A stretch of 63,383 nt of DNA, filler included, from Aduncisulcus paluster (Eukaryota), in NCBI GenBank assembly GCA_024181965.1. It is 8 parts of 8 records of this genome, joined end to end, with 100 filler letters (N's around TTAATTAATTAA, not from the genome) between each part and the next. Parts side by side here need not be neighbours in the genome. Positions count along the whole stretch, not along the records: positions 1 to 7,697 come from BQXS01010176.1; 7 more parts are not named here. One strand, written 5' to 3'. This document shows, piece after piece, positions 1-60,179 of the stretch. The notes beneath the pieces were generated by a model. The model was not told where the DNA came from and made no database searches. It saw nothing but the letters and a program-made list of their open reading frames with translations. Position numbers and translations under genes: made by a program. Each line of letters opens with the position of its first letter. Position 1 is the first letter of the stretch.

Positions 1-770
1 AAATAAAGACAAAAAGAAAATAATGGGCAAAAAACATATAGTCAGCAACAAATCATATAGAGTAGAGGTTAAACCATTGTGATGGCGAGTACCAATATCT
101 TGGAGTTGGAAAGCTTAAACCATTTCAATAGTTGATAGAGGTTGTTTAATGATAGAGAAGGAAAGTATTAGTGGAGGAAATGTTATTGAAATAGAAAGAA
201 TATCATTGGAGGGATAGAAAACTGTGTGGGAAGCCTTAGGTGTTGTTTTATGAAACTATTCTAGGGTTAGACATACTAGAGGAACGCCATCGAAGCTCTG
301 GTTCTCTTGGTAAAGCCAGCTCTGTCGAGAAGTTTGGATATGGCTTTGTCAGCCGATCCAAATGCTCTCATGAGCACAGCTTGTCCGATGCGTCTCCGAA
401 GTAGCCTCAGCCTCGTCATATAGACAGCTTTGTCACCTTCTTTGGAGGAGATGCGTTGTTTCGGATTATCAGAACATTGTCTTGAATATATTAGATCTAT
501 TTGATGATACAATCAAAATCACTCCCAAATACAGATGACACTTATAATTTACACATCATTTGAATACCCACAATATTATTATGTTCTCATTCAACCAGAA
601 AAAACCTTTTTTTGAATGGCACAGGTTACATCGATTTCTAAATTAATGTCGTATGAATCATAGTGTGAAAAATATTATTGCCCGGATCAATAAAAAATTA
701 ATAATAGTCCGGGTAAAGTGGAACTTCCAACCAGCGGTGCCGACTGTAATTGAAATCAAAACAAACAGTG

Positions 771-948
771 TTTCAGTATCACGGTAGAAATCTTCCAGAT
801 ACTCATTGTCAGCAACAGGTTCATAGTATATAGGCAAGCCTAATTCTTCACCAAGGGCTTTTGCAAGGGTAGATTTTCCGGCACCGATTAGACCAGATAT
901 AGCAATAAAAACATTATCAAAAACTCCTTCAAGTGGTTCTGGCTCCAT
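771..948 (-). pseudogene. 5' fragment of a deoxynucleoside kinase (dNK family, P-loop); similarity stops after about 57 aa
   Basis: [44 protein letters not shown] contains the dNK P-loop and the EPV motif. The rest of ORF 658-948 is not dNK-like, and I found no C-terminal half in 1-770. Confidence 0.75.
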
Positions 949-1143
949 ATATATTGAGAAAATGTGTATTGATGTTTTGGATATTAAGCAACAGAATTGC
1001 GGTCAATCTGAGACAAATTAGGCGAGAGAAAACAATGGAAGAGATTGGAAGAAAAATGAAATCTATGGTTCAAGGAATTATGCAAGTTTTTTGGATCAAA
1101 ATTAATTAATTATTTTATTGCAATTATTTTCTTCTAAATTCCT

Positions 1144-1296
1144 TCAAGGAATTCCCAAGTTGGGTCTTTCTTCCCATTTACCCAGTATAAGAAATTTTCC
1201 CAAATGCGCTATGTTCATGGCAGCACTGACATCTCTATTGCTCACACGCCTGCATTTTTTGCATCTTCTCTGCCTTAATAGTGGGATACCTTTCCG
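1144..1296 (-). mobile_element. Fanzor/TnpB-family nuclease C-terminal remnant (second CxxC of the Zn finger, RuvC-III and RP tail)
   Basis: Manual translation gives RKGIPLLRQRRCKKCRRVSNRDVSAAMNIAHLGKFLILGKWEERPNLGIP*, matching CxxC-x4-NRDxxAAxNI...G..RP. There is an in-frame stop immediately upstream (1297-1299). Confidence 0.75.
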
Positions 1297-1958
1297 TTAT
1301 TCCCTCGATTAATGTTGAGGCCAATCTATGAACAGCAGTGTTGTTTTGGACAGTATCTTCTTTTCGAGGGGAAGAGTATATGCGATTTATTCGTTTCCTG
1401 TCCAAATAGCACATGGCTAGTAAAATGACACTCCACCGACTTCGCTCTCTGAATTAGAAATAAGATAAAGTCATTAAGCATTTATTTTCAAATAAAAAAC
1501 CATCATTTATAAGAATAAATTTCAAAAATTGTAGAAACTACAGCCAATTTACTTATTTGATTGGTTTGCCAATATAGGAGAGTGAATATGAGTCAATAGT
1601 GTTNNNNNNNNNNNNNNNNNNNNTCTGCCTTAATAGTGGGATACCTTTCCGTTATTCCCTCGATTAATGTTGAGGCCAATCTATGAACAGCAGTGTTGTT
1701 TTGGACAGTATCTTCTTTTCGAGGGGAAGAGTATATGCGATTTATTCGTTTCCTGTCCAAATAGCACATGGCTAGTAAAATGACACTCCACCGACTTCGC
1801 TCTCTGAATTAGAAATAAGATAAAGTCATTAAGCATTTATTTTCAAATAAAAAACCATCATTTATAAGAATAAATTTCAAAAATTGTAGAAACTACAGCC
1901 AATTTACTTATTTGATTGGTTTGCCAATATAGGAGAGTGAATATGAGTCAATAGTGTT
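1269..1958. repeat. Assembly-overlap duplication (1269-1603 = 1624-1958) around a 20-N gap
   Basis: The 335-nt flanks on either side of N 1604-1623 read the same. Confidence 0.9.
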
Positions 1959-2587
1959 CCATCTTCACCCTTTATACTTTTTATGCCAGTCCCATCAACT
2001 TGAATACTATGTACAGAACTAGGAGTACGAACGGGGAAAGAGAAGACATTGGAGGAAGAAGGAACATGAGAGTGTGATGAAACATGTGAAACAGGTGAAT
2101 GGGGTGAAAGAACCGCAGGAGACCGCGACGAGGCAGCAAATGATTTATGAGATAGAGACGAGGGAATGTGTACAGAAGCAGAAGATGATGGAATTCTTTG
2201 TGAATAAAGGAACACTCCATCTTTATCCATTGATTCTAAAACCGATTTAGCTTGACTTTGTTGTTTTTGCAATGAGTCGAGCTGAGCAACTAAAGCTTGT
2301 AATTTAATTTTCCTCCCTTCAAATACTTTTGATAAAAACGTTATGGATGAAGAAAACATATCGGATCCATATTTATCTCCCATTGACACAACATTTCGCA
2401 AATCTTTTTCTATATCATGAATTTCCTCAAGCAAAATATGTATTTGTTCTTGTAAATCATCAATAACTGAATTTTGCAACAATTTTGAAGAGGTACTTTG
2501 TAAAACAGACGCCAACTGTTTTCCATCGCTCGCATGGCGAAAATCTTTCAATATATCTGTTTCTCTAGTTTTTTCTTGAGTATACAT
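1904..2587 (-). CDS. Hypothetical coiled-coil protein with Ser-rich C-terminus
   Basis: 227-aa ATG-started ORF with heptad-like segments, flanked by AT-rich DNA. Confidence 0.65.
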   Translation of the reverse strand: MYTQEKTRETDILKDFRHASDGKQLASVLQSTSSKLLQNSVIDDLQEQIHILLEEIHDIEKDLRNVVSMGDKYGSDMFSSSITFLSKVFEGRKIKLQALVAQLDSLQKQQSQAKSVLESMDKDGVFLYSQRIPSSSASVHIPSSLSHKSFAASSRSPAVLSPHSPVSHVSSHSHVPSSSNVFSFPVRTPSSVHSIQVDGTGIKSIKGEDGTLLTHIHSPILANQSNK

Positions 2588-2876
2588 TTAATATAATTTC
2601 CTATCTGCCTGTATATTTTAATATATGTGATACAAAACTCGAGATTTCTTGCAAAAAATCCTTCTCATGAATTGTGCTCATTTTCCAAGATATTACATTG
2701 TTTATCGCAATTTAACTCCTATTACATGCACTTTTGTTTATTTATTCAAACCCAAATGCTTTATAACGATGATATTCAGAAAACTACTTGTTTTGGCAGG
2801 AAGGAGACAGGAAATAGAATAATATTTATTATATTTTTCAAGAAAAATAATCTATTATTATATTATTTAGGTTAGA

Positions 2877-5027
2877 ATGGACATATCTTTTTCTCTTGAT
2901 AGATTGTGTCCTCTTTCCCAAGAAGACATTCTCCAATCAGTTCAATGTGTGGTATGTTTTGAAATTAGTTATCCTGATCCTGTTAGACTTCCACATTGTG
3001 GTCACGTTTTCCATCGTAAATGTATTCTCCCTTGGCTCCAAAGGAATATGGTTTGCCCTATGTGTAAAACCAAAGTTCCTTCTTTAGATGTATTAATGGA
3101 CGATCGACTAGCTGTAAATCTGATTGAGTCTGCCACTTTTTGTTGCTCTAATCCGTCTTGCTTATTTACCAGCAATATTCAACAAATGATTCTCCATGAA
3201 AAGGAAGGATCTCATATATTATCTTTATCAAATTCCAATAAGGTCATTTCTAAACTTCAAAAGGATCTTCTTGATGCTGAATCGGTGAGAACTCAGCTTG
3301 AGCACCATTCTGCTCAGACCAAAGCTGAGAATCGTCGCCTCTGCCGATCTTTGGAGGAAAAAGATAAATGTATTTCAGAAATGCAACGAAAAATCAACAA
3401 ATTAAATAATATTACAATTGATTATTATAGGTTGTCTTCCGAGCATTCCAAACTAGAAGCTCAAATATCTCGATTAAAAGAACTAAAAATAGAACAAACC
3501 AATCATATTTCACATCTTCAGCATGAATTAGATGTTCATGAATGCATTAAAGGTTGCAGTGAGGATTCAGCGAGAGTATTTTCTTCAATATTATATGATG
3601 GTGGAGAGAGTTGTTTGGATTGGCTCTCGAAACGTCAAAAACAAATATCATCTCTTCCAGAAATAATAGATTTGGAAGACGATGACGGTGTTGATGAAAG
3701 GACTAAAGAAAAAGATGAAGAATGTATCAGCACCGAGCTTCTCATGCCCTTTCCCCAAGTATCTATGACAAGAAAGGAACATTCATCTCCTTCTTCCTCT
3801 TCTTCATCTGATATTCCGGCATTCTCTGATCTCATTGGCTCCTTATCATCCTTTTCAGAGAGCGTTTCTTCTCGTCCTCCCGGGTTCAAGTTTAATCCTT
3901 CTTTGCAGCAACTATCTGCACTCTCTCTATGTGTTCAGTGTGTCAAATGGTGCAAATATGAATTATATCGTCAAGATAGAGCAATACAGAAAGATAGAGC
4001 AAGAATTAAGTTATTAGAGAAACAGTATTTTGCCCAACGAGAGATTCTACAGCTCCACCGAAAGGAAATGCAAGAGACACAAGCTAAAGCACAAGCAGAG
4101 TATCACTCTTCACTTCCAACCTCTCACTTATTCATGAAGAAAGATCATTCAACAAACACGACAAACTCATATATTTCTCTAAAGAAAAAAGATAATCCAT
4201 TTCCATATGTGTCCAAGTCCGGCATTCATACCCATACCCTTAAACACAAACATCATTTTGACACTTGCCAAAGAGGTGGGAAGAGTTCTTTCTCAGGACT
4301 AAGTTCAGCCGAAGATTATCGGCCACAACCGGTCATCAGCCGCTCGTACAGTCCACCCATTGTTCCTCCAACCTCTTCACTAGAATCACCTATTCTCTCC
4401 ACCCCTCTCTCTTCCTCCTCTATCATCTCTTCCCCAACAAGTCCCCTGTCGGTTCCACGTGCAGCTCCAACCCCTCCCTTTATATCTCCCTCACTCNNNN
4501 NNNNNNNNNNNNNNNNGCCACAACCGGTCATCAGCCGCTCGTACAGTCCACCCATTGTTCCTCCAACCTCTTCACTAGAATCACCTATTCTCTCCACCCC
4601 TCTCTCTTCCTCCTCTATCATCTCTTCCCCAACAAGTCCCCTGTCGGTTCCACGTGCAGCTCCAACCCCTCCCTTTATATCTCCCTCACTCACATCTGTG
4701 GGCTCAATATCACCCTTTAGACAGGCACATGCACCAAAATCAACTCCTTATCATCATGACATCTCTGGAGATGCAATTGAAAAGAGAATCAAGATAAACA
4801 ATAATAATAATCTCATTAAATCATCGAGGAAAAATAAGATTTTAGCCGGGAAACGACGTTTTGTTCAATCACTTTCGAGTGTTATGGATAAGAGTCAGGA
4901 TTTCTCATCTAAACATGGCACTGCCCATAAAATAGCAGTAGGCTCCAAGGATAAACACATTGACACGAAACTTGACTCACATTTTAAAATTAGAAGGAAG
5001 TCATTTCCTGAAAAGAGGAAAAAATAG
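2877..5027 (+). CDS. RING-H2 E3 ubiquitin ligase-like protein with coiled coil and Ser/Pro-rich tail
   Basis: CVVC...CGHVFHRKC...CPMC. Segment 4322-4496 is repeated at 4517-4691 across an N gap (artefact), so the true protein is about 65 aa shorter. Confidence 0.85.
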   Translation: MDISFSLDRLCPLSQEDILQSVQCVVCFEISYPDPVRLPHCGHVFHRKCILPWLQRNMVCPMCKTKVPSLDVLMDDRLAVNLIESATFCCSNPSCLFTSNIQQMILHEKEGSHILSLSNSNKVISKLQKDLLDAESVRTQLEHHSAQTKAENRRLCRSLEEKDKCISEMQRKINKLNNITIDYYRLSSEHSKLEAQISRLKELKIEQTNHISHLQHELDVHECIKGCSEDSARVFSSILYDGGESCLDWLSKRQKQISSLPEIIDLEDDDGVDERTKEKDEECISTELLMPFPQVSMTRKEHSSPSSSSSSDIPAFSDLIGSLSSFSESVSSRPPGFKFNPSLQQLSALSLCVQCVKWCKYELYRQDRAIQKDRARIKLLEKQYFAQREILQLHRKEMQETQAKAQAEYHSSLPTSHLFMKKDHSTNTTNSYISLKKKDNPFPYVSKSGIHTHTLKHKHHFDTCQRGGKSSFSGLSSAEDYRPQPVISRSYSPPIVPPTSSLESPILSTPLSSSSIISSPTSPLSVPRAAPTPPFISPSLXXXXXXXPQPVISRSYSPPIVPPTSSLESPILSTPLSSSSIISSPTSPLSVPRAAPTPPFISPSLTSVGSISPFRQAHAPKSTPYHHDISGDAIEKRIKINNNNNLIKSSRKNKILAGKRRFVQSLSSVMDKSQDFSSKHGTAHKIAVGSKDKHIDTKLDSHFKIRRKSFPEKRKK

Positions 5028-5573
5028 GATCGAAATAGCTACTTCAAATCCCAGATTCAATCTACCAAAAGTTTTGGTTCATCGAAAAATTCCCCATATC
5101 CTTTCATATTCTTGGTTTATTTGGCTTTAATCTGGGTAAATATTGTTATCAAACTTTTTTAAATATGTGAAATGAGACAATATCTTCATATAATTACTTC
5201 TTTTACAGGAAATTTTTTCATCATGAATGATAACCCTGAAAGAGTCACATATTTTTCCGGTTGAAAAAATATGTTTACATACTCTATATATATCAAATTA
5301 ATAAATTTTTTTGTTTTTAATATTTCTTTTTTTCCCTGATCCATAATTTTTCTCTATATCTCGAGCTAGGCACATGAGGTGACTGCTTACATCATTATTT
5401 TGGAAATAAAATACATTGTTATGTTTCAGATGCCTTCCAAGGTCTGCTAAACCCTGACATTTTTCGACAGAGATATTTCGACTATTCTTTGATTGCGATA
5501 GCTACTCGCGTACACAAAATTTATTTCAGTTTTGCTTATATCTGGTTTTATTTTCTTAAAATATAAGTGTTAA

Positions 5574-7697
5574 ATGAAAGACTCACACCACGAGCCTTTA
5601 TCCGAAAATGTTATGGACGTCGACGGGGGACACTCTGTTTCTCGACAACGTGAACCTGGTTCAGGTGATCCTGAACATCAAATTAGAATTCTTGAAGATG
5701 AAAAAAGGGCAGCCGAAAGAGCCAATGCCCAGAATGCTGAAATGGTTAAACGCCTCAAATTTCGTTTAGAAACGCTTAAATCCTCATTAAGTACTAAACA
5801 AAATGCTCTTAAAGAGAAAGAGTCTGAGGTCGAAGAAATGAGAAGTGAACAAGAACATCTGTCTGAGCAAGTTTCTTCTCTTCAAACAAAACAGCATGAA
5901 AGTCAACAAAAATTATCCCAACAACAAAAGAAATTACAATCTGCAGAGAAAGAAGTTTTAAGATTAAAGCGTAGAATCAAAATTGTTGATTCTTCTTCCA
6001 TGGGTCCTACATCCCCTCGTAGAGCCGGATCTTCTTCTATTTCAGGTTCTTTTAGAACTTTACAACTTTCACCACGACAAGGAAGGACTGTAAGTTCATC
6101 TCAAAGACCCCAAGAACTTGATATTCCCTCTGAGGGTCATACTGGATCAACTGAATTACCGTCCTGGATATTAAATCAATCAATATCCCCTGGTTCCCTT
6201 CAAATTCCCAAAGCAGGTGTTAGTAGTGGACGACTTGCTTCCAAACATTCCCAAGGTCCCGTTACGTTATCACAATCTCTGAGAATGCCTCATTCTCATG
6301 GTAAAGATGGCCAAGAGGTATCTTCCGATAGATTGAAACATTTTCTCGACGATCTCCATGATATCAAGAGTGAGAGATCTGAACTGGGTGAAGAATATGG
6401 AATGGAGGAAGATGATCCAGATCGCTTGCGTCATGAAGATATGAAAGTATTCCTTGACGATGAAAGTCCCAGCCATGGAGGAGCACCTGTGAGCGGTATT
6501 CCTCCGAATCTACGTGCCCTCTTGGCCAAATCTCCTATTTCGGTCATTGACGAACTCATTGCTATCATTCAGAATGGTCTTGACTCTGCCAAGGAAGCCC
6601 AAAATGCGCAGGAAAGAGCTGAAAGACTCGCTAATCAACTTGGTGCCACTGTGTCTCGTGAACAAACTCTACGTAAGAAGCTTGACTTTGCCAATGCTCG
6701 AATCAAATATTTGTTGGGAAATCTTGGAAAGAAAGAAACTGTTAAAACGATATATATTGGTGGAGATAAGGGTGGGAGTCGCTTCCAGAAGAGTTTTGGT
6801 GGTTCTGACCTTGTGAAGCAGCCCAGTCAGATTGATTTTGCAAAGAAATCTCAGGCCCAGGACAAACAACTCGCTGAAGCTCGTGCTGAGCTTGTCGAAA
6901 AAGCCCGTGGTCTTGAATCCAGAGAGAAAGATCTTGCAAACAGAGAGATCCTTGATAAGCAGAACATGAAAGACTTGGAGGATGAGAAACAACGCCTTGA
7001 AGACGAAAAACATGCTCTTGAGGAAGAATGGGAGAAGATAGAGGAAGAAAGGAAACTATTTTCCGATGAGAAGACATCTCTCCAACAAGAAATCGATACA
7101 TTGAAGGCACAGCTCTCCACCATGATGGATGAGGACTTATCTGAGGAATGTGGGGATTACATTGATCAAATCACTGAACTTCAGGCCCAGAAATCAGCTT
7201 TTGACAAAGAGAACGCTGATCTTCATAAGAGTTTGATGGCCGAGCTTGCCTCCCTTGAAACCGACATGGAAGACAGTGATGCCGAACAACGCGAGAGATC
7301 TGAGCTTGAAGCTGAGATTGCCAAGATCGAGGCAAGAAAGGCTGAGCTTGAGAAAGATCGTGTTGCCCGTGAGGAGGCTGAGCGTGCCAGACTCGAGAAG
7401 CTCAAGGATGCTGAAGAGCAACTTGCTGAAGACAAGGAAGAACTCGATCGCAAGCGTGCTGAGCTTGAAGCCGATCAGGCCGCCCTTGTTGAGAAGATCC
7501 GTGCCCTTGCCGAAAGAGAAGAGGAAGAGCAACGCAAGCTTGATGAGCTCGAAGATGAACGCAAGAAGATCGAAGAAGCCAGACAGACCTTTGTTGACGA
7601 TGAACAGAAACTTTCCGAACTTGAGTCTGAACACAAGCAGATTGAAGAAGAAAGAGATGAACTTGCTGCCAAGCAACAAGAGCTTGAAGAAGAGGTT
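5574..7697 (+). CDS. Long coiled-coil protein, 3'-truncated by contig end
   Basis: ORF of more than 700 aa, E/K/Q-rich heptads, runs into the linker. Confidence 0.85.
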
Positions 7698-7797
7698 NNN
7701 NNNNNNNNNNNNNNNNNNNNNNNNNNNNNNNNNNNNNNNNNTTAATTAATTAANNNNNNNNNNNNNNNNNNNNNNNNNNNNNNNNNNNNNNNNNNNN
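7698..7797. other. Artificial contig linker (N-TTAATTAATTAA-N); also at 9887-9986, 21489-21588, 34142-34241, 52573-52672, 54834-54933 and 60080-60179
   Basis: The same 100-nt spacer carrying stops in all six frames occurs seven times. Confidence 0.97.
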
Positions 7798-8726
7798 AAC
7801 AGAAACTGCAACGTTTCATGCAGGATCAAGAATACGAGCTACATCGTCAACAAAGAGAAATTAAAGATACCGAACAATCTGTTCTTGGGAAGAAATCTGA
7901 AATTGACAGAGTTTGGACAGAAATATCTTCAGAATTGGAGACGATTGATGCACAAAAGAAAGCTCTCGAAGCTCGGCATGAAGACCTTGAGAGCACGCGG
8001 GAAGAAATTCAACAGTTTGCTTCATGGATTCGTACAGAAGCGGATAAACTCAAACATCACGAAGCCGAGATAAGTGAAAGGGAGAGGGCTCTCGTGCAAT
8101 ACATTGAAGATGTTGAACAAGAAAAGATCAGAGTTGAGAGAGACAGACAGGATGTTATGGAACAGAAACAAACCATGGGGAAAGATAAGACGGAAATAGC
8201 AAAACGTATTGTTATGATCGAAAAGAAGGAAAGAGACGCGGAAAAGGAGAAAGAAAAGGCCAAATCTATTTTTGAAGATGCTGAGAAACAAATGCAGCGA
8301 GTTAAAGATCTTGAGAAACAGCTTCAATCCGATATTGATGATCACCATCAGCGAGTTCAGGATCTGCACAGGCTGCAACAACAATTGTTGGATGATTCCC
8401 AGGCATTTGATCGTGAGAAAGCTTTGTTGAGCGAAGAACAGCGTGTATTTGTTGAGAATAAGAAAATTTTAGAAGCCGCTCACAAAGATGTAGAAAAACG
8501 TGAAGCCGAAGTGAATGAAGGCATAGAAGCTGCTAAAAGGAAATTACAGCAAGTTCAAGAATTGCAACAAGATTTGATTGACCAAGAAAAACGACTGTCT
8601 GAGTGGAACTCAACGTTAATAGAGATGGAAAAGGACATTTCATTCAAACAAAAGACTTTGGAAGAAGAAAGGCAGATATTTCTTGAACAACAGGAAAAAG
8701 AAGAGCAAGGATCAGGTAAATGGTAA
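7798..8726 (+). CDS. Coiled-coil protein C-terminal part, possibly the continuation of 5574-7697
   Basis: E/Q/K-rich heptads from the contig start, on the same strand and with the same composition as the preceding truncated ORF. Confidence 0.75.
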
Positions 8727-9886: not shown

Positions 9887-10101
9887 NNNNNNNNNNNNNN
9901 NNNNNNNNNNNNNNNNNNNNNNNNNNNNNNTTAATTAATTAANNNNNNNNNNNNNNNNNNNNNNNNNNNNNNNNNNNNNNNNNNNNATAATAAAAAAGAG
10001 AAAGAAAATCAATAAATTATATTTTCGTTGATCTACAATCAAATAAAAACCTTAATTAATAGTAATTAGGGGATCGGCAAAAGAATATAATTGGCTGCAT
10101 T

Positions 10102-21488: not shown

Positions 21489-21588
21489 NNNNNNNNNNNN
21501 NNNNNNNNNNNNNNNNNNNNNNNNNNNNNNNNTTAATTAATTAANNNNNNNNNNNNNNNNNNNNNNNNNNNNNNNNNNNNNNNNNNNN

Positions 21589-34141: not shown

Positions 34142-34241
34142 NNNNNNNNNNNNNNNNNNNNNNNNNNNNNNNNNNNNNNNNNNNNTTAATTAATTAANNN
34201 NNNNNNNNNNNNNNNNNNNNNNNNNNNNNNNNNNNNNNNNN

Positions 34242-52132: not shown

Positions 52133-52672
52133 CAATTAGAAGAGCATCATTTGGATAGAAGAAGAACACCAAGAAGGAAAAAGAGGTCTCCTAGGCGGGC
52201 TCTATGGATAAAATGGAAAAAGGTCGCATTTCGTGTTTATTTCATTCATGAAGTCGAAATTAATTGTATTTTGACATTATTTATTCTTCTTATACTTTAT
52301 TTCACCATAAAAAAATAGGCTTATTATTGCGGTTCCCGATGAGGAAAAGTGCCACTTTGCCAATATTGCCAACGAGTCTTGAATCAAGTTTGAAAGGATG
52401 AAAAAAAGATTAAGAATAGCATTAGTTCTTTGAATTCATGTTGAATCAATGTTTAGATTCTTATTGGGCTTCCAAACTCCTAAGTTCTGAAATGGTTATT
52501 CAACTGTCATAAAAATAAAGTAATATCATATGCACTTGCATTTTTAAATTGTTTATTATGTCGGTTTTATTTNNNNNNNNNNNNNNNNNNNNNNNNNNNN
52601 NNNNNNNNNNNNNNNNTTAATTAATTAANNNNNNNNNNNNNNNNNNNNNNNNNNNNNNNNNNNNNNNNNNNN

Positions 52673-54274: not shown

Positions 54275-54937
54275 ATATTGTTACCTCGGGAACCAAGTCT
54301 TAACTTTTTCGAAAAGTCTTTTTGAAATCACTAAGTAATGTTAGTATGATGGTATTACAATGTTGTTTATTTATTATTGACAGAAACTATTATTATTATT
54401 TATTATTTTGAAGTTATCATCTTATTATATTAAAGGATTAAGAATGTTTTATTTTTTGGTTCCGGTTTGGTTTCAAATCCAAAAACTGGGAATTTATATT
54501 TTATTTCAAAATAGTAAATTTGCTCCAAGCATAAATTCTGTAGAACAGCTAACAGTAATCATTACTAGCATGCTGCATCTACTTGAATACAAGTTGTATG
54601 ATGCCCCAAATGAGATCTGAGTCAGATTGAAAAATTCCTATGCATAGGAATCCTATGGATTTCACATTGTGCATTGTTTTTTCGCAGTATAAATGTGAAG
54701 GTAATAACAATTAATCATTTATTAATAGAATTTTCCGATTCAGCATTATCACATAACTAGGTCCCTAAGTAGTATCTTCTTAAACAGCATCTTTCCATAC
54801 ATCTCATCTACCTCGCACTTTCTTACATCTCATNNNNNNNNNNNNNNNNNNNNNNNNNNNNNNNNNNNNNNNNNNNNTTAATTAATTAANNNNNNNNNNN
54901 NNNNNNNNNNNNNNNNNNNNNNNNNNNNNNNNNAAGG

Positions 54938-59759: not shown

Positions 59760-60179
59760 TTCTTCCGAGCTTCCTTTTTGGCAAGAGGGAACACTGAATC
59801 GACTTTTGAACAGGAAGTTCTATTACGATTCCACAACCTTCGGATCGTGATTAATGGGAGAAAGATATCTGGTCTCAATAAGAAGTGAAGGATATCGGTG
59901 GCGCTCGGTGATATTGCGAACACGCAAGTGATTTTCTGGCGCTGGCATCTCAGTATCAATTCTTCCTTTGCCGAGGAACTCAGGCAGAAAGACAAGAACT
60001 GAGTCATGTATCCTCCAAGGTGGAGGACCTCCAGGTGCATGCGGTACAAACCTCATCTCTTGTTGGATCTCTACCCAACNNNNNNNNNNNNNNNNNNNNN
60101 NNNNNNNNNNNNNNNNNNNNNNNTTAATTAATTAANNNNNNNNNNNNNNNNNNNNNNNNNNNNNNNNNNNNNNNNNNNN

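Follow-up and report, generated by a model that had tools for sequence, protein, structure and literature searches.

Fanzors are eukaryotic RNA-guided nucleases derived from TnpB, and their spread over the eukaryotes bears on the frequency of acquisition and on the pool of compact genome editors. Metamonads are a deep-branching, mostly anaerobic protist lineage. Here, we describe a minus-strand locus at positions 1296-1144 of a 63,383-nucleotide stretch of DNA (the whole of which we call the window). The locus is likely to be the dead, 5'-truncated tail of a TnpB/Fanzor-type gene, and to belong to a small family of repeats in what is probably a metamonad.

The available part of the survey by Bao and Jurka (2013; PMC3627910) lists seven host groups for Fanzor, metamonads not among them, and gives the Fanzor motif as D-X(125,275)-[TS][TS]...[C4 zinc finger]-X(5,50)-RD. 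For Spizellomyces punctatus, the available text of Saito et al. (2023; PMC10432273) counts 134 protein-less ghost loci against 42 loci with full-length (19) or partial genes, and describes how the stretch of about 80 nt between the Fanzor stop and the 3' inverted repeat was probed by small-RNA sequencing for non-coding RNA. An extended-data legend in the same paper states that Fanzor loci express their own omegaRNAs. Full-text searches of the literature recovered no report that links Fanzor with metamonads and no joint mention of Fanzor and Giardia; Fanzor and Trichomonas were mentioned together only in a review of AlphaFold 3, in whose available text each word stands once. The words metamonad, Excavat and Trichomonas are absent from the available main texts of PMC3627910, PMC10432273, Jiang et al. 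(2023; PMC10530073) and Yoon et al. (2023; PMC10711439), as is Giardia from those of PMC3627910, PMC10530073 and PMC10711439. A metamonad Fanzor-type family, if true, would add a deep-branching lineage to the host map and would be the first that we found reported.

The locus consists of a stop-to-stop frame of 50 codons plus a TGA, running from 1296 to 1144 on the minus strand and reading RKGIPLLRQRRCKKCRRVSNRDVSAAMNIAHLGKFLILGKWEERPNLGIP up to its stop. The frame does not open with a start codon and is directly preceded by a TAA at 1299-1297. Retranslation returned this frame, as well as a second frame just upstream that contains RKRINRIYSS, exactly as an earlier note on this DNA had quoted them. 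The features of the tail are as follows.

1147-1296, minus strand: 50-codon stop-to-stop frame, the TnpB/Fanzor-type C-terminal tail (from translation, profile matches and hhalign)
1252-1263, minus strand: CKKC, corresponding to the second CxxC in the zinc ribbon of TnpB (codons for Cys at 1263-1261 and 1254-1252)
1210-1236, minus strand: RDVSAAMNI, the RuvC-III motif (Asp codon at 1233-1231), five residues after the CxxC, which is the TnpB spacing
1144-1146, minus strand: TGA stop of the tail frame, 21 residues past RDVSAAMNI
1297-1299, minus strand: TAA that closes the tail frame upstream, together with a 2-nt junction (overlap 1297-1298) to a high-depth repeat unit (from run contigs)

The frame thus holds 11 residues ahead of the CxxC and 21 after the motif, with the TAA lying 11 codons upstream of the CxxC. 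RDVSAAMNI aligns to the invariant positions R340 D341. A344 A345. N347 I348 of 34 viral TnpBs. Only the second CxxC is present, so a complete zinc finger, with two CxxC pairs preceded by [TS][TS], was not found. Neither the RuvC-I Asp nor the RuvC-II Glu was found upstream of the tail, where the second frame has no match to PF01385 or to any other family; there is no room for them, because a different repeat and then a neighbouring gene follow within about 250 nt.

When the 50-residue peptide was searched against profile libraries, TnpB/Cas12f models were matched in Pfam, NCBIfam and PHROGs, all below their cut-offs. In Pfam, the sole family was PF07282 (Cas12f1-like TNB; E=1.5e-4, 22.3 bits), which aligned peptide residues 8-29 to profile positions 39-60 of 60. 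NCBIfam returned four matches in all, each to a TnpB/Cas12f model at that model's own C-terminal end: guided_TnpB (NF040570) scored best (E=1.3e-4, 21.3 bits, positions 365-388 of 389), followed by IS200_TnpB, Cas12f2 and IS607_TnpB. The short tail and the placement of all four matches on the last model positions agree in marking a C-terminus. The best PHROGs match was the transposase family phrog_506 (E=0.0018), and 30 of the 30 nearest clusters in the protein atlas carried PF07282 (score 0.97). As a control, we searched 12 nearby short frames in which no gene is known; their best Pfam match had an E value of 0.0067. We also scanned for the pattern C..C-x(3-8)-RD.[NS]AA.N[ILVM], which occurred once in the six frames of the window and in none of 300 first-order Markov windows.

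We then compared the tail with TnpB-type open reading frames (ORFs) of viruses. Scanning viral contigs for the motif with the window's spacing yielded at least 111 matches in at least 110 loci. Among the viral matches listed, the CxxC was preceded by at least 319 residues in 79 of the 87 ORFs closed upstream (median 346), and the tail after the motif had a median length of 22 residues in the 107 ORFs closed downstream. PF07282 was found above its cut-off in all 10 evenly sampled viral matches, and PF01385 in nine of these as well. With 11 residues before and 21 after, the frame in the window therefore has a natural gene end and lacks nearly everything that should precede it. Aligned by hhalign to 34 of 68 full-length viral ORFs, the peptide reached a probability of 92.1% (E=6.3e-7) over 35 columns, at template positions 335-369 of 402. 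Because this template set had been picked by the motif itself, we repeated the scoring on the positions that were unused for picking, where the window scored above 98.7% of 33,923 null windows (p=0.013). An invariant Arg four residues before the Cys and a conserved Gly four residues past the NI are both present in the tail. Overall, profiles, atlas and hhalign bear out the earlier note in its identification of a TnpB/Fanzor-type C-terminus with a second CxxC, a RuvC-III motif of the form RD..AA.NI, a short tail and a stop.

Copies of the tail were sought in public sequencing runs. Three runs hold parts of 640-1600: X1 and X2, which represent one sample (organism A), and X3, which represents organism B. 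X2 and X3 may be RNA runs, and their uncovered parts were left uninterpreted. Since summed word depth is not copy number, we relied on distinct contigs; the depths are given below.

1432-1600: unique flank, summed depth about 1,280
1135-1266: coding tail, summed depth 7,500-11,000
1069-1134: 3' flank, summed depth 23,000-29,000
1300-1398: unit of about 130 nt, summed depth 92,000-153,000
1063-1143, minus strand: flank on the 3' side, more highly repeated than the tail (depth 23,000-29,000; loose ends at 1063 and 1073)
1297-1428, no strand assigned: separate repeat unit of about 130 nt, with an internal hairpin and most of the upstream frame (from depth, loose ends and fold)
1143-1159, no strand assigned: 17-nt insertion or deletion relative to another copy (from a run contig); its removal alters the last 5-6 residues and shifts the stop one codon on

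In the source organism, the tail belongs to a small family whose copies have diverged. One variant contig spans 1160-1286 with 12 differences over 127 nt (about 9%), and its tail frame is still open. Ten listed changes fall in eight codons of the tail frame, of which three are synonymous, including the second Cys codon (TGC to TGT), and the other five change the residue (K>R, R>K, S>C, M>L and I>M). Of the two other frames, one acquires a stop through the variant's changes, and the remaining one is interrupted by two stops in the window itself. Another contig (1073-1182) lacks 17 nt at 1143, and taking these out of the window's copy leaves the first 45 residues unaffected. The earlier note describes a G..RP tail as typical of Fanzor1 proteins, and in this other copy the last 5-6 residues of the frame are different. 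The 17-nt difference is private to the window's copy, because the contig that spans 1116-1189 is of single depth. A contig from X2 tracks the window as far as 1298 and then departs; by hand translation, the copy with this loose end keeps the tail frame open for the 10 upstream codons that are visible, none of which encodes Cys. The open frame of the copies and the synonymous changes suggest a coding past, on numbers too small for proof. The earlier note had tied its claim to the existence of profile matches and of related copies, and both were found, the latter as several diverged copies in run contigs of the source organism.

We further examined the 5' side of the tail, where the earlier note had seen the mark of an internal deletion. 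At 1297/1298, the tail family borders on the unit of about 130 nt, and it is exactly there that copies of both sides diverge. The edges of the unit are sharp, with loose ends at 1424-1428 and at 1297-1298, and in summed depth it exceeds the tail about tenfold. A contig from X3 carries 1297-1424 without any difference, set between unlike flanks, and departs below 1297. On its plus strand, the unit forms a long hairpin (z=-2.84; matched by 1 of 200 shuffles). The unit matched no Rfam or protein family, and a 30-nt piece of it had no matches in metagenome contigs. Beyond it lies the unique 3' end of a neighbouring coiled-coil gene. The second frame, most of which falls within the unit, runs from 1453 to 1235 on the minus strand, encodes 72 amino acids and, after RKRINRIYSS, ends in AVHRLASTLIEGITERYPTIKAEKMQKMQACEQ before its stop.

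In the account of the earlier note, the locus would be an internally deleted, non-autonomous copy. On such a reading, the frame at 1453-1235 would represent the helix before RuvC-II of the same gene, linked to the second CxxC through a deletion plus a frameshift. Two stretches of this frame, VHRLASTLI and IKAEKM, look by eye like LHKxSxxLV and IxVEDL of the 34-TnpB consensus, with four extra residues between them. On hand translation, the frame also remains open in four further contexts, three upstream and one downstream, over 34 extra codons, for which we estimate the chance at about 0.15. This alignment by eye to the TnpB helix and RuvC-II strand was dropped, as hhalign did not support it: against the 34 viral TnpBs, the upstream frame received a probability of 0.5% over 6 columns, which lay elsewhere than the likeness seen by eye. 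Nor did the frame match Pfam or NCBIfam at E<=10; PHROGs offered just a family of unknown function (E=0.11), and the protein atlas (recognition 1350) gave no usable match. We read the locus as 5'-truncated rather than internally deleted, because there is no TnpB signal upstream, the two parts differ in depth, and both sides diverge exactly at 1297/1298; the X3 contig, which has 1297-1424 alone between unlike flanks, also speaks against a deletion within one element. Internal deletion is quite unlikely in our judgement, and it keeps some weight because the unit of about 130 nt could be part of the same element, spread alone. On the 3' side, the question is whether the tail and the approximately 80 nt after it might persist as a ghost guide-RNA locus, that is, as an omegaRNA scaffold at the right end of a transposon that would serve an intact Fanzor in trans. 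The 3' flank (1069-1134) is about three times as deep as the tail, and at 1063 or 1073, 71-81 nt past the stop, other copies run on into different flanks. This recalls the post-stop stretch of about 80 nt in Spizellomyces punctatus, where, according to the available text of PMC10432273, 134 ghost loci stand against 42 that bear genes. Against such a role, the RNA fold of 1240-1060 is no better than that of shuffles (z=+0.53; 138 of 200 fold equally well), no terminal inverted repeats were found, and an Rfam search of 900-1603 returned four matches, all far under their gathering scores, and hence no family. An intact Fanzor is, moreover, not known from the source organism. By analogy, the locus might act in this way, which we hold to be very unlikely. 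The broader picture, of a Carpediemonas-like metamonad with a live or recently live Fanzor family, intact genes elsewhere and 3' flanks of about 80 nt as ghost guide-RNA loci used in trans, is unlikely.

An 11-nt direct repeat, TTCAAGGAATT, at 1069-1079 and 1143-1153 brackets the 3' flank, and its second copy falls inside the 17 nt that are absent from another copy of the tail. The repeat is possibly a small duplication at the stop codon.

The search for relatives covered several protein and contig collections, and in none of them was a longer relative of the 50-residue peptide found. A word-index protein search gave eight candidates among longer proteins, none at E<=10, and no candidate among proteins of near lengths. 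A phmmer search of 1.84 billion representatives returned only two matches, both to repeat proteins that score through 4-6 repeated stretches, and these were rejected as spurious; phmmer against PDB recovered just an aminotransferase (E=1.2). Combining the pattern with tblastn, we obtained 40 viral, 590 metagenome and 600 prokaryote pattern matches, with 0 confirmed, and no close relative in 185,579 prokaryote genomes or IMG/VR. There was no tblastn match to phages. The earlier note had proposed a Fanzor family with possibly intact members: the multi-copy family was recovered, and the collections searched held no longer relative that would represent an intact member.

The genomic setting of the tail is eukaryotic. 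Genes are densely packed in the window; their frames are long and free of introns, and eukaryotic domains occur among them, namely RING, SH3, CHY zinc finger and AAA. The RING-finger gene is located on the same segment as the tail (1-7697), and the SH3, CHY and AAA genes are on other segments. The locus and its flank are connected by a contig derived from reads. Over 242 residues, the AAA protein shares 70% identity with a protein of Aduncisulcus paluster, a Carpediemonas-like metamonad, and the two are still similar beyond the AAA domain (29% over 200 residues, E=6e-17). The placement in a probable metamonad, suggested by the earlier note, thus receives modest support from this one protein.

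Several observations weigh against a TnpB/Fanzor-type tail. Every profile score is under its curated cut-off (22.3 compared with 26.3 bits for PF07282, and 21.3 compared with 100 for NF040570), as is expected when the query is a fragment, and the alignable stretch is short, at about 25-35 residues. The hhalign result and the tail statistics are partly circular, because the template and the viral set were picked by the motif itself, and the test on independent positions reached only p=0.013. RDVSAAMNI has a Ser where TnpBs usually have Asn, and an Arg lies two residues before the first Cys, where Trp is top-scoring in 110 viral sequences among the matches listed. No longer relative was found in the collections searched, the copy count rests on a handful of distinct short contigs, and three synonymous changes among eight codons are too few to demonstrate selection. 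Several of these points, together with the lack of any other TnpB domain at the locus and of relatives in the databases searched, would fit a multi-copy repeat without coding function, whose translation gives a CxxC...RD..AA.NI string by accident. We consider such chance resemblance highly improbable: three libraries and language-model features agree both on the family and on its C-terminal end, the motif is absent from all 300 random windows, the stop is placed where TnpB genes stop, and the variant copy keeps the frame open through its 12 differences over 127 nt. A TnpB of prokaryotic or phage origin, brought in by contamination or transferred very recently, would account for the fact that the best individual matches are phage-type TnpBs from viral contigs, in a comparison set that contained no Fanzor sequences. 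Here, the remnant lies within about 250 nt of a eukaryotic-style gene on the same contig, a 5.3-kb contig derived from reads joins 1396-1600 to that flank, no close relative occurs in the 185,579 prokaryote genomes or IMG/VR, and the element is multi-copy in the source organism; we regard this origin as extremely improbable.

The preferred reading thus remains a 5'-truncated TnpB/Fanzor-type tail. Building on the motif, the profile matches, the several distinct copies and the junction, all of which are demonstrated, we propose that the remnant would be the last 45-50 codons or so of a gene for a TnpB/Fanzor-family (OMEGA-type RuvC) nuclease. It appears to have kept the second CxxC, the RuvC-III motif including the catalytic Asp, a short tail of natural length and the stop, and would have lost the WED and REC domains, the RuvC-I Asp, the RuvC-II Glu and the first CxxC. 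As everything upstream is missing, the locus cannot encode a nuclease. The remnant seems to sit in a repeat mosaic between the coiled-coil gene and a truncated deoxynucleoside-kinase fragment. It would descend from a once-intact Fanzor gene borne by a transposon, and intact copies may exist, or have existed, in the genome.

The assembly around the tail requires care. Positions 1269-1603 are repeated exactly at 1624-1958, across a gap of 20 N at 1604-1623. The window has 20-N gaps at 1604, 4497, 16761, 23085, 25956, 37679, 40922 and 49548, all eight of which are flanked by exact duplicates of 155-346 nt, and the duplicate touches the gap edge in seven of the eight. A 5.3-kb contig from X1 runs from 1396 through 1600 and beyond. 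Because all eight gaps are flanked in this manner and the X1 contig is continuous, we interpret the repeat as an unmerged contig overlap, and the locus as one rather than two. A second copy of the upstream frame, at 1808-1593, was accordingly rejected as a real tandem copy and attributed to the overlap. The two remaining features near the tail are given below.

1604-1958, no strand assigned: 20-N gap and exact repeat of 1269-1603, an assembly artefact (from the gap repeats and the X1 contig)
774-948, minus strand: 5' part of a deoxynucleoside kinase gene, cut short at 774, which lies beside the remnant and does not belong to it (PF01712, E=1.5e-9, profile positions 1-51 of 203)

Frames that cross the gaps carry false internal duplications, as in the RING-finger ORF at 2877-5027. 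Seven identical linkers (44 N, TTAATTAATTAA, 44 N), whose spacer has stops in all six frames, lie at 7698-7797, 9887-9986, 21489-21588, 34142-34241, 52573-52672, 54834-54933 and 60080-60179. They chain separate contigs, and gene order across them is therefore not real; the tail lies on the first segment (1-7697).

Towards the left end of this segment, positions 774-1092 have double the depth of the flank, and a loose end at 774 departs into sequence that, by hand translation, continues the kinase frame. The kinase fragment seems to be a second, truncated copy of a gene whose intact version lies elsewhere. Summed depth is raised at 640-773 as well (3,300-8,000), and a 78-residue frame on the minus strand (512-276) has a weak helix-hairpin-helix match (DprA_N, E=0.0067). 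The left end of the first contig looks like a mosaic of repeats.

Taken alone, the locus is a 45-residue relic, which speaks for a gene once present in the lineage and multiplied there rather than for a working nuclease. It is ordinary in kind: Fanzor loci that are partial or have no gene are well known from other eukaryotes, as the available text of PMC10432273 attests. Its value is that of a pointer to possible intact copies in the full genome.

Compared with the known systems, the tail resembles TnpB of IS200/IS605 and IS607 (PF07282, NF040570) in having the second CxxC followed, after five residues, by RD.xAA.NI, in an Arg that precedes the Cys by four residues, in a Gly that follows the NI by four, and in a tail of about 21 residues. 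Unlike TnpB, it comprises only the last 45 residues or so, has Ser for Asn and Arg where Trp tops, lies on a eukaryotic contig and scores below the cut-offs. From Fanzor1 and Fanzor2, the TnpB homologues of eukaryotes and giant viruses, it differs in that there is no intact copy, no transposase and no defined ends at the locus, and its likeness to them is judged by published descriptions; 45 residues are too few for a tree that would place it with one or the other. As in the Fanzors of the available texts of PMC3627910, PMC10432273, PMC10530073 and PMC10711439, a TnpB-like sequence lies on a eukaryotic nuclear contig, is multi-copy and belongs to a group in which many members are partial, and the tail carries the final part of the defining motif, the zinc finger-X(5,50)-RD of PMC3627910. 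The ghost Spu-1 loci of Spizellomyces punctatus differ from the present locus, which has no inverted repeats and no fold signal. The resemblance to these and to the partial loci, as far as the available text of PMC10432273 describes them, lies in a post-stop region that is kept and outnumbers the genes, just as the 3' flank here is deeper than the tail.

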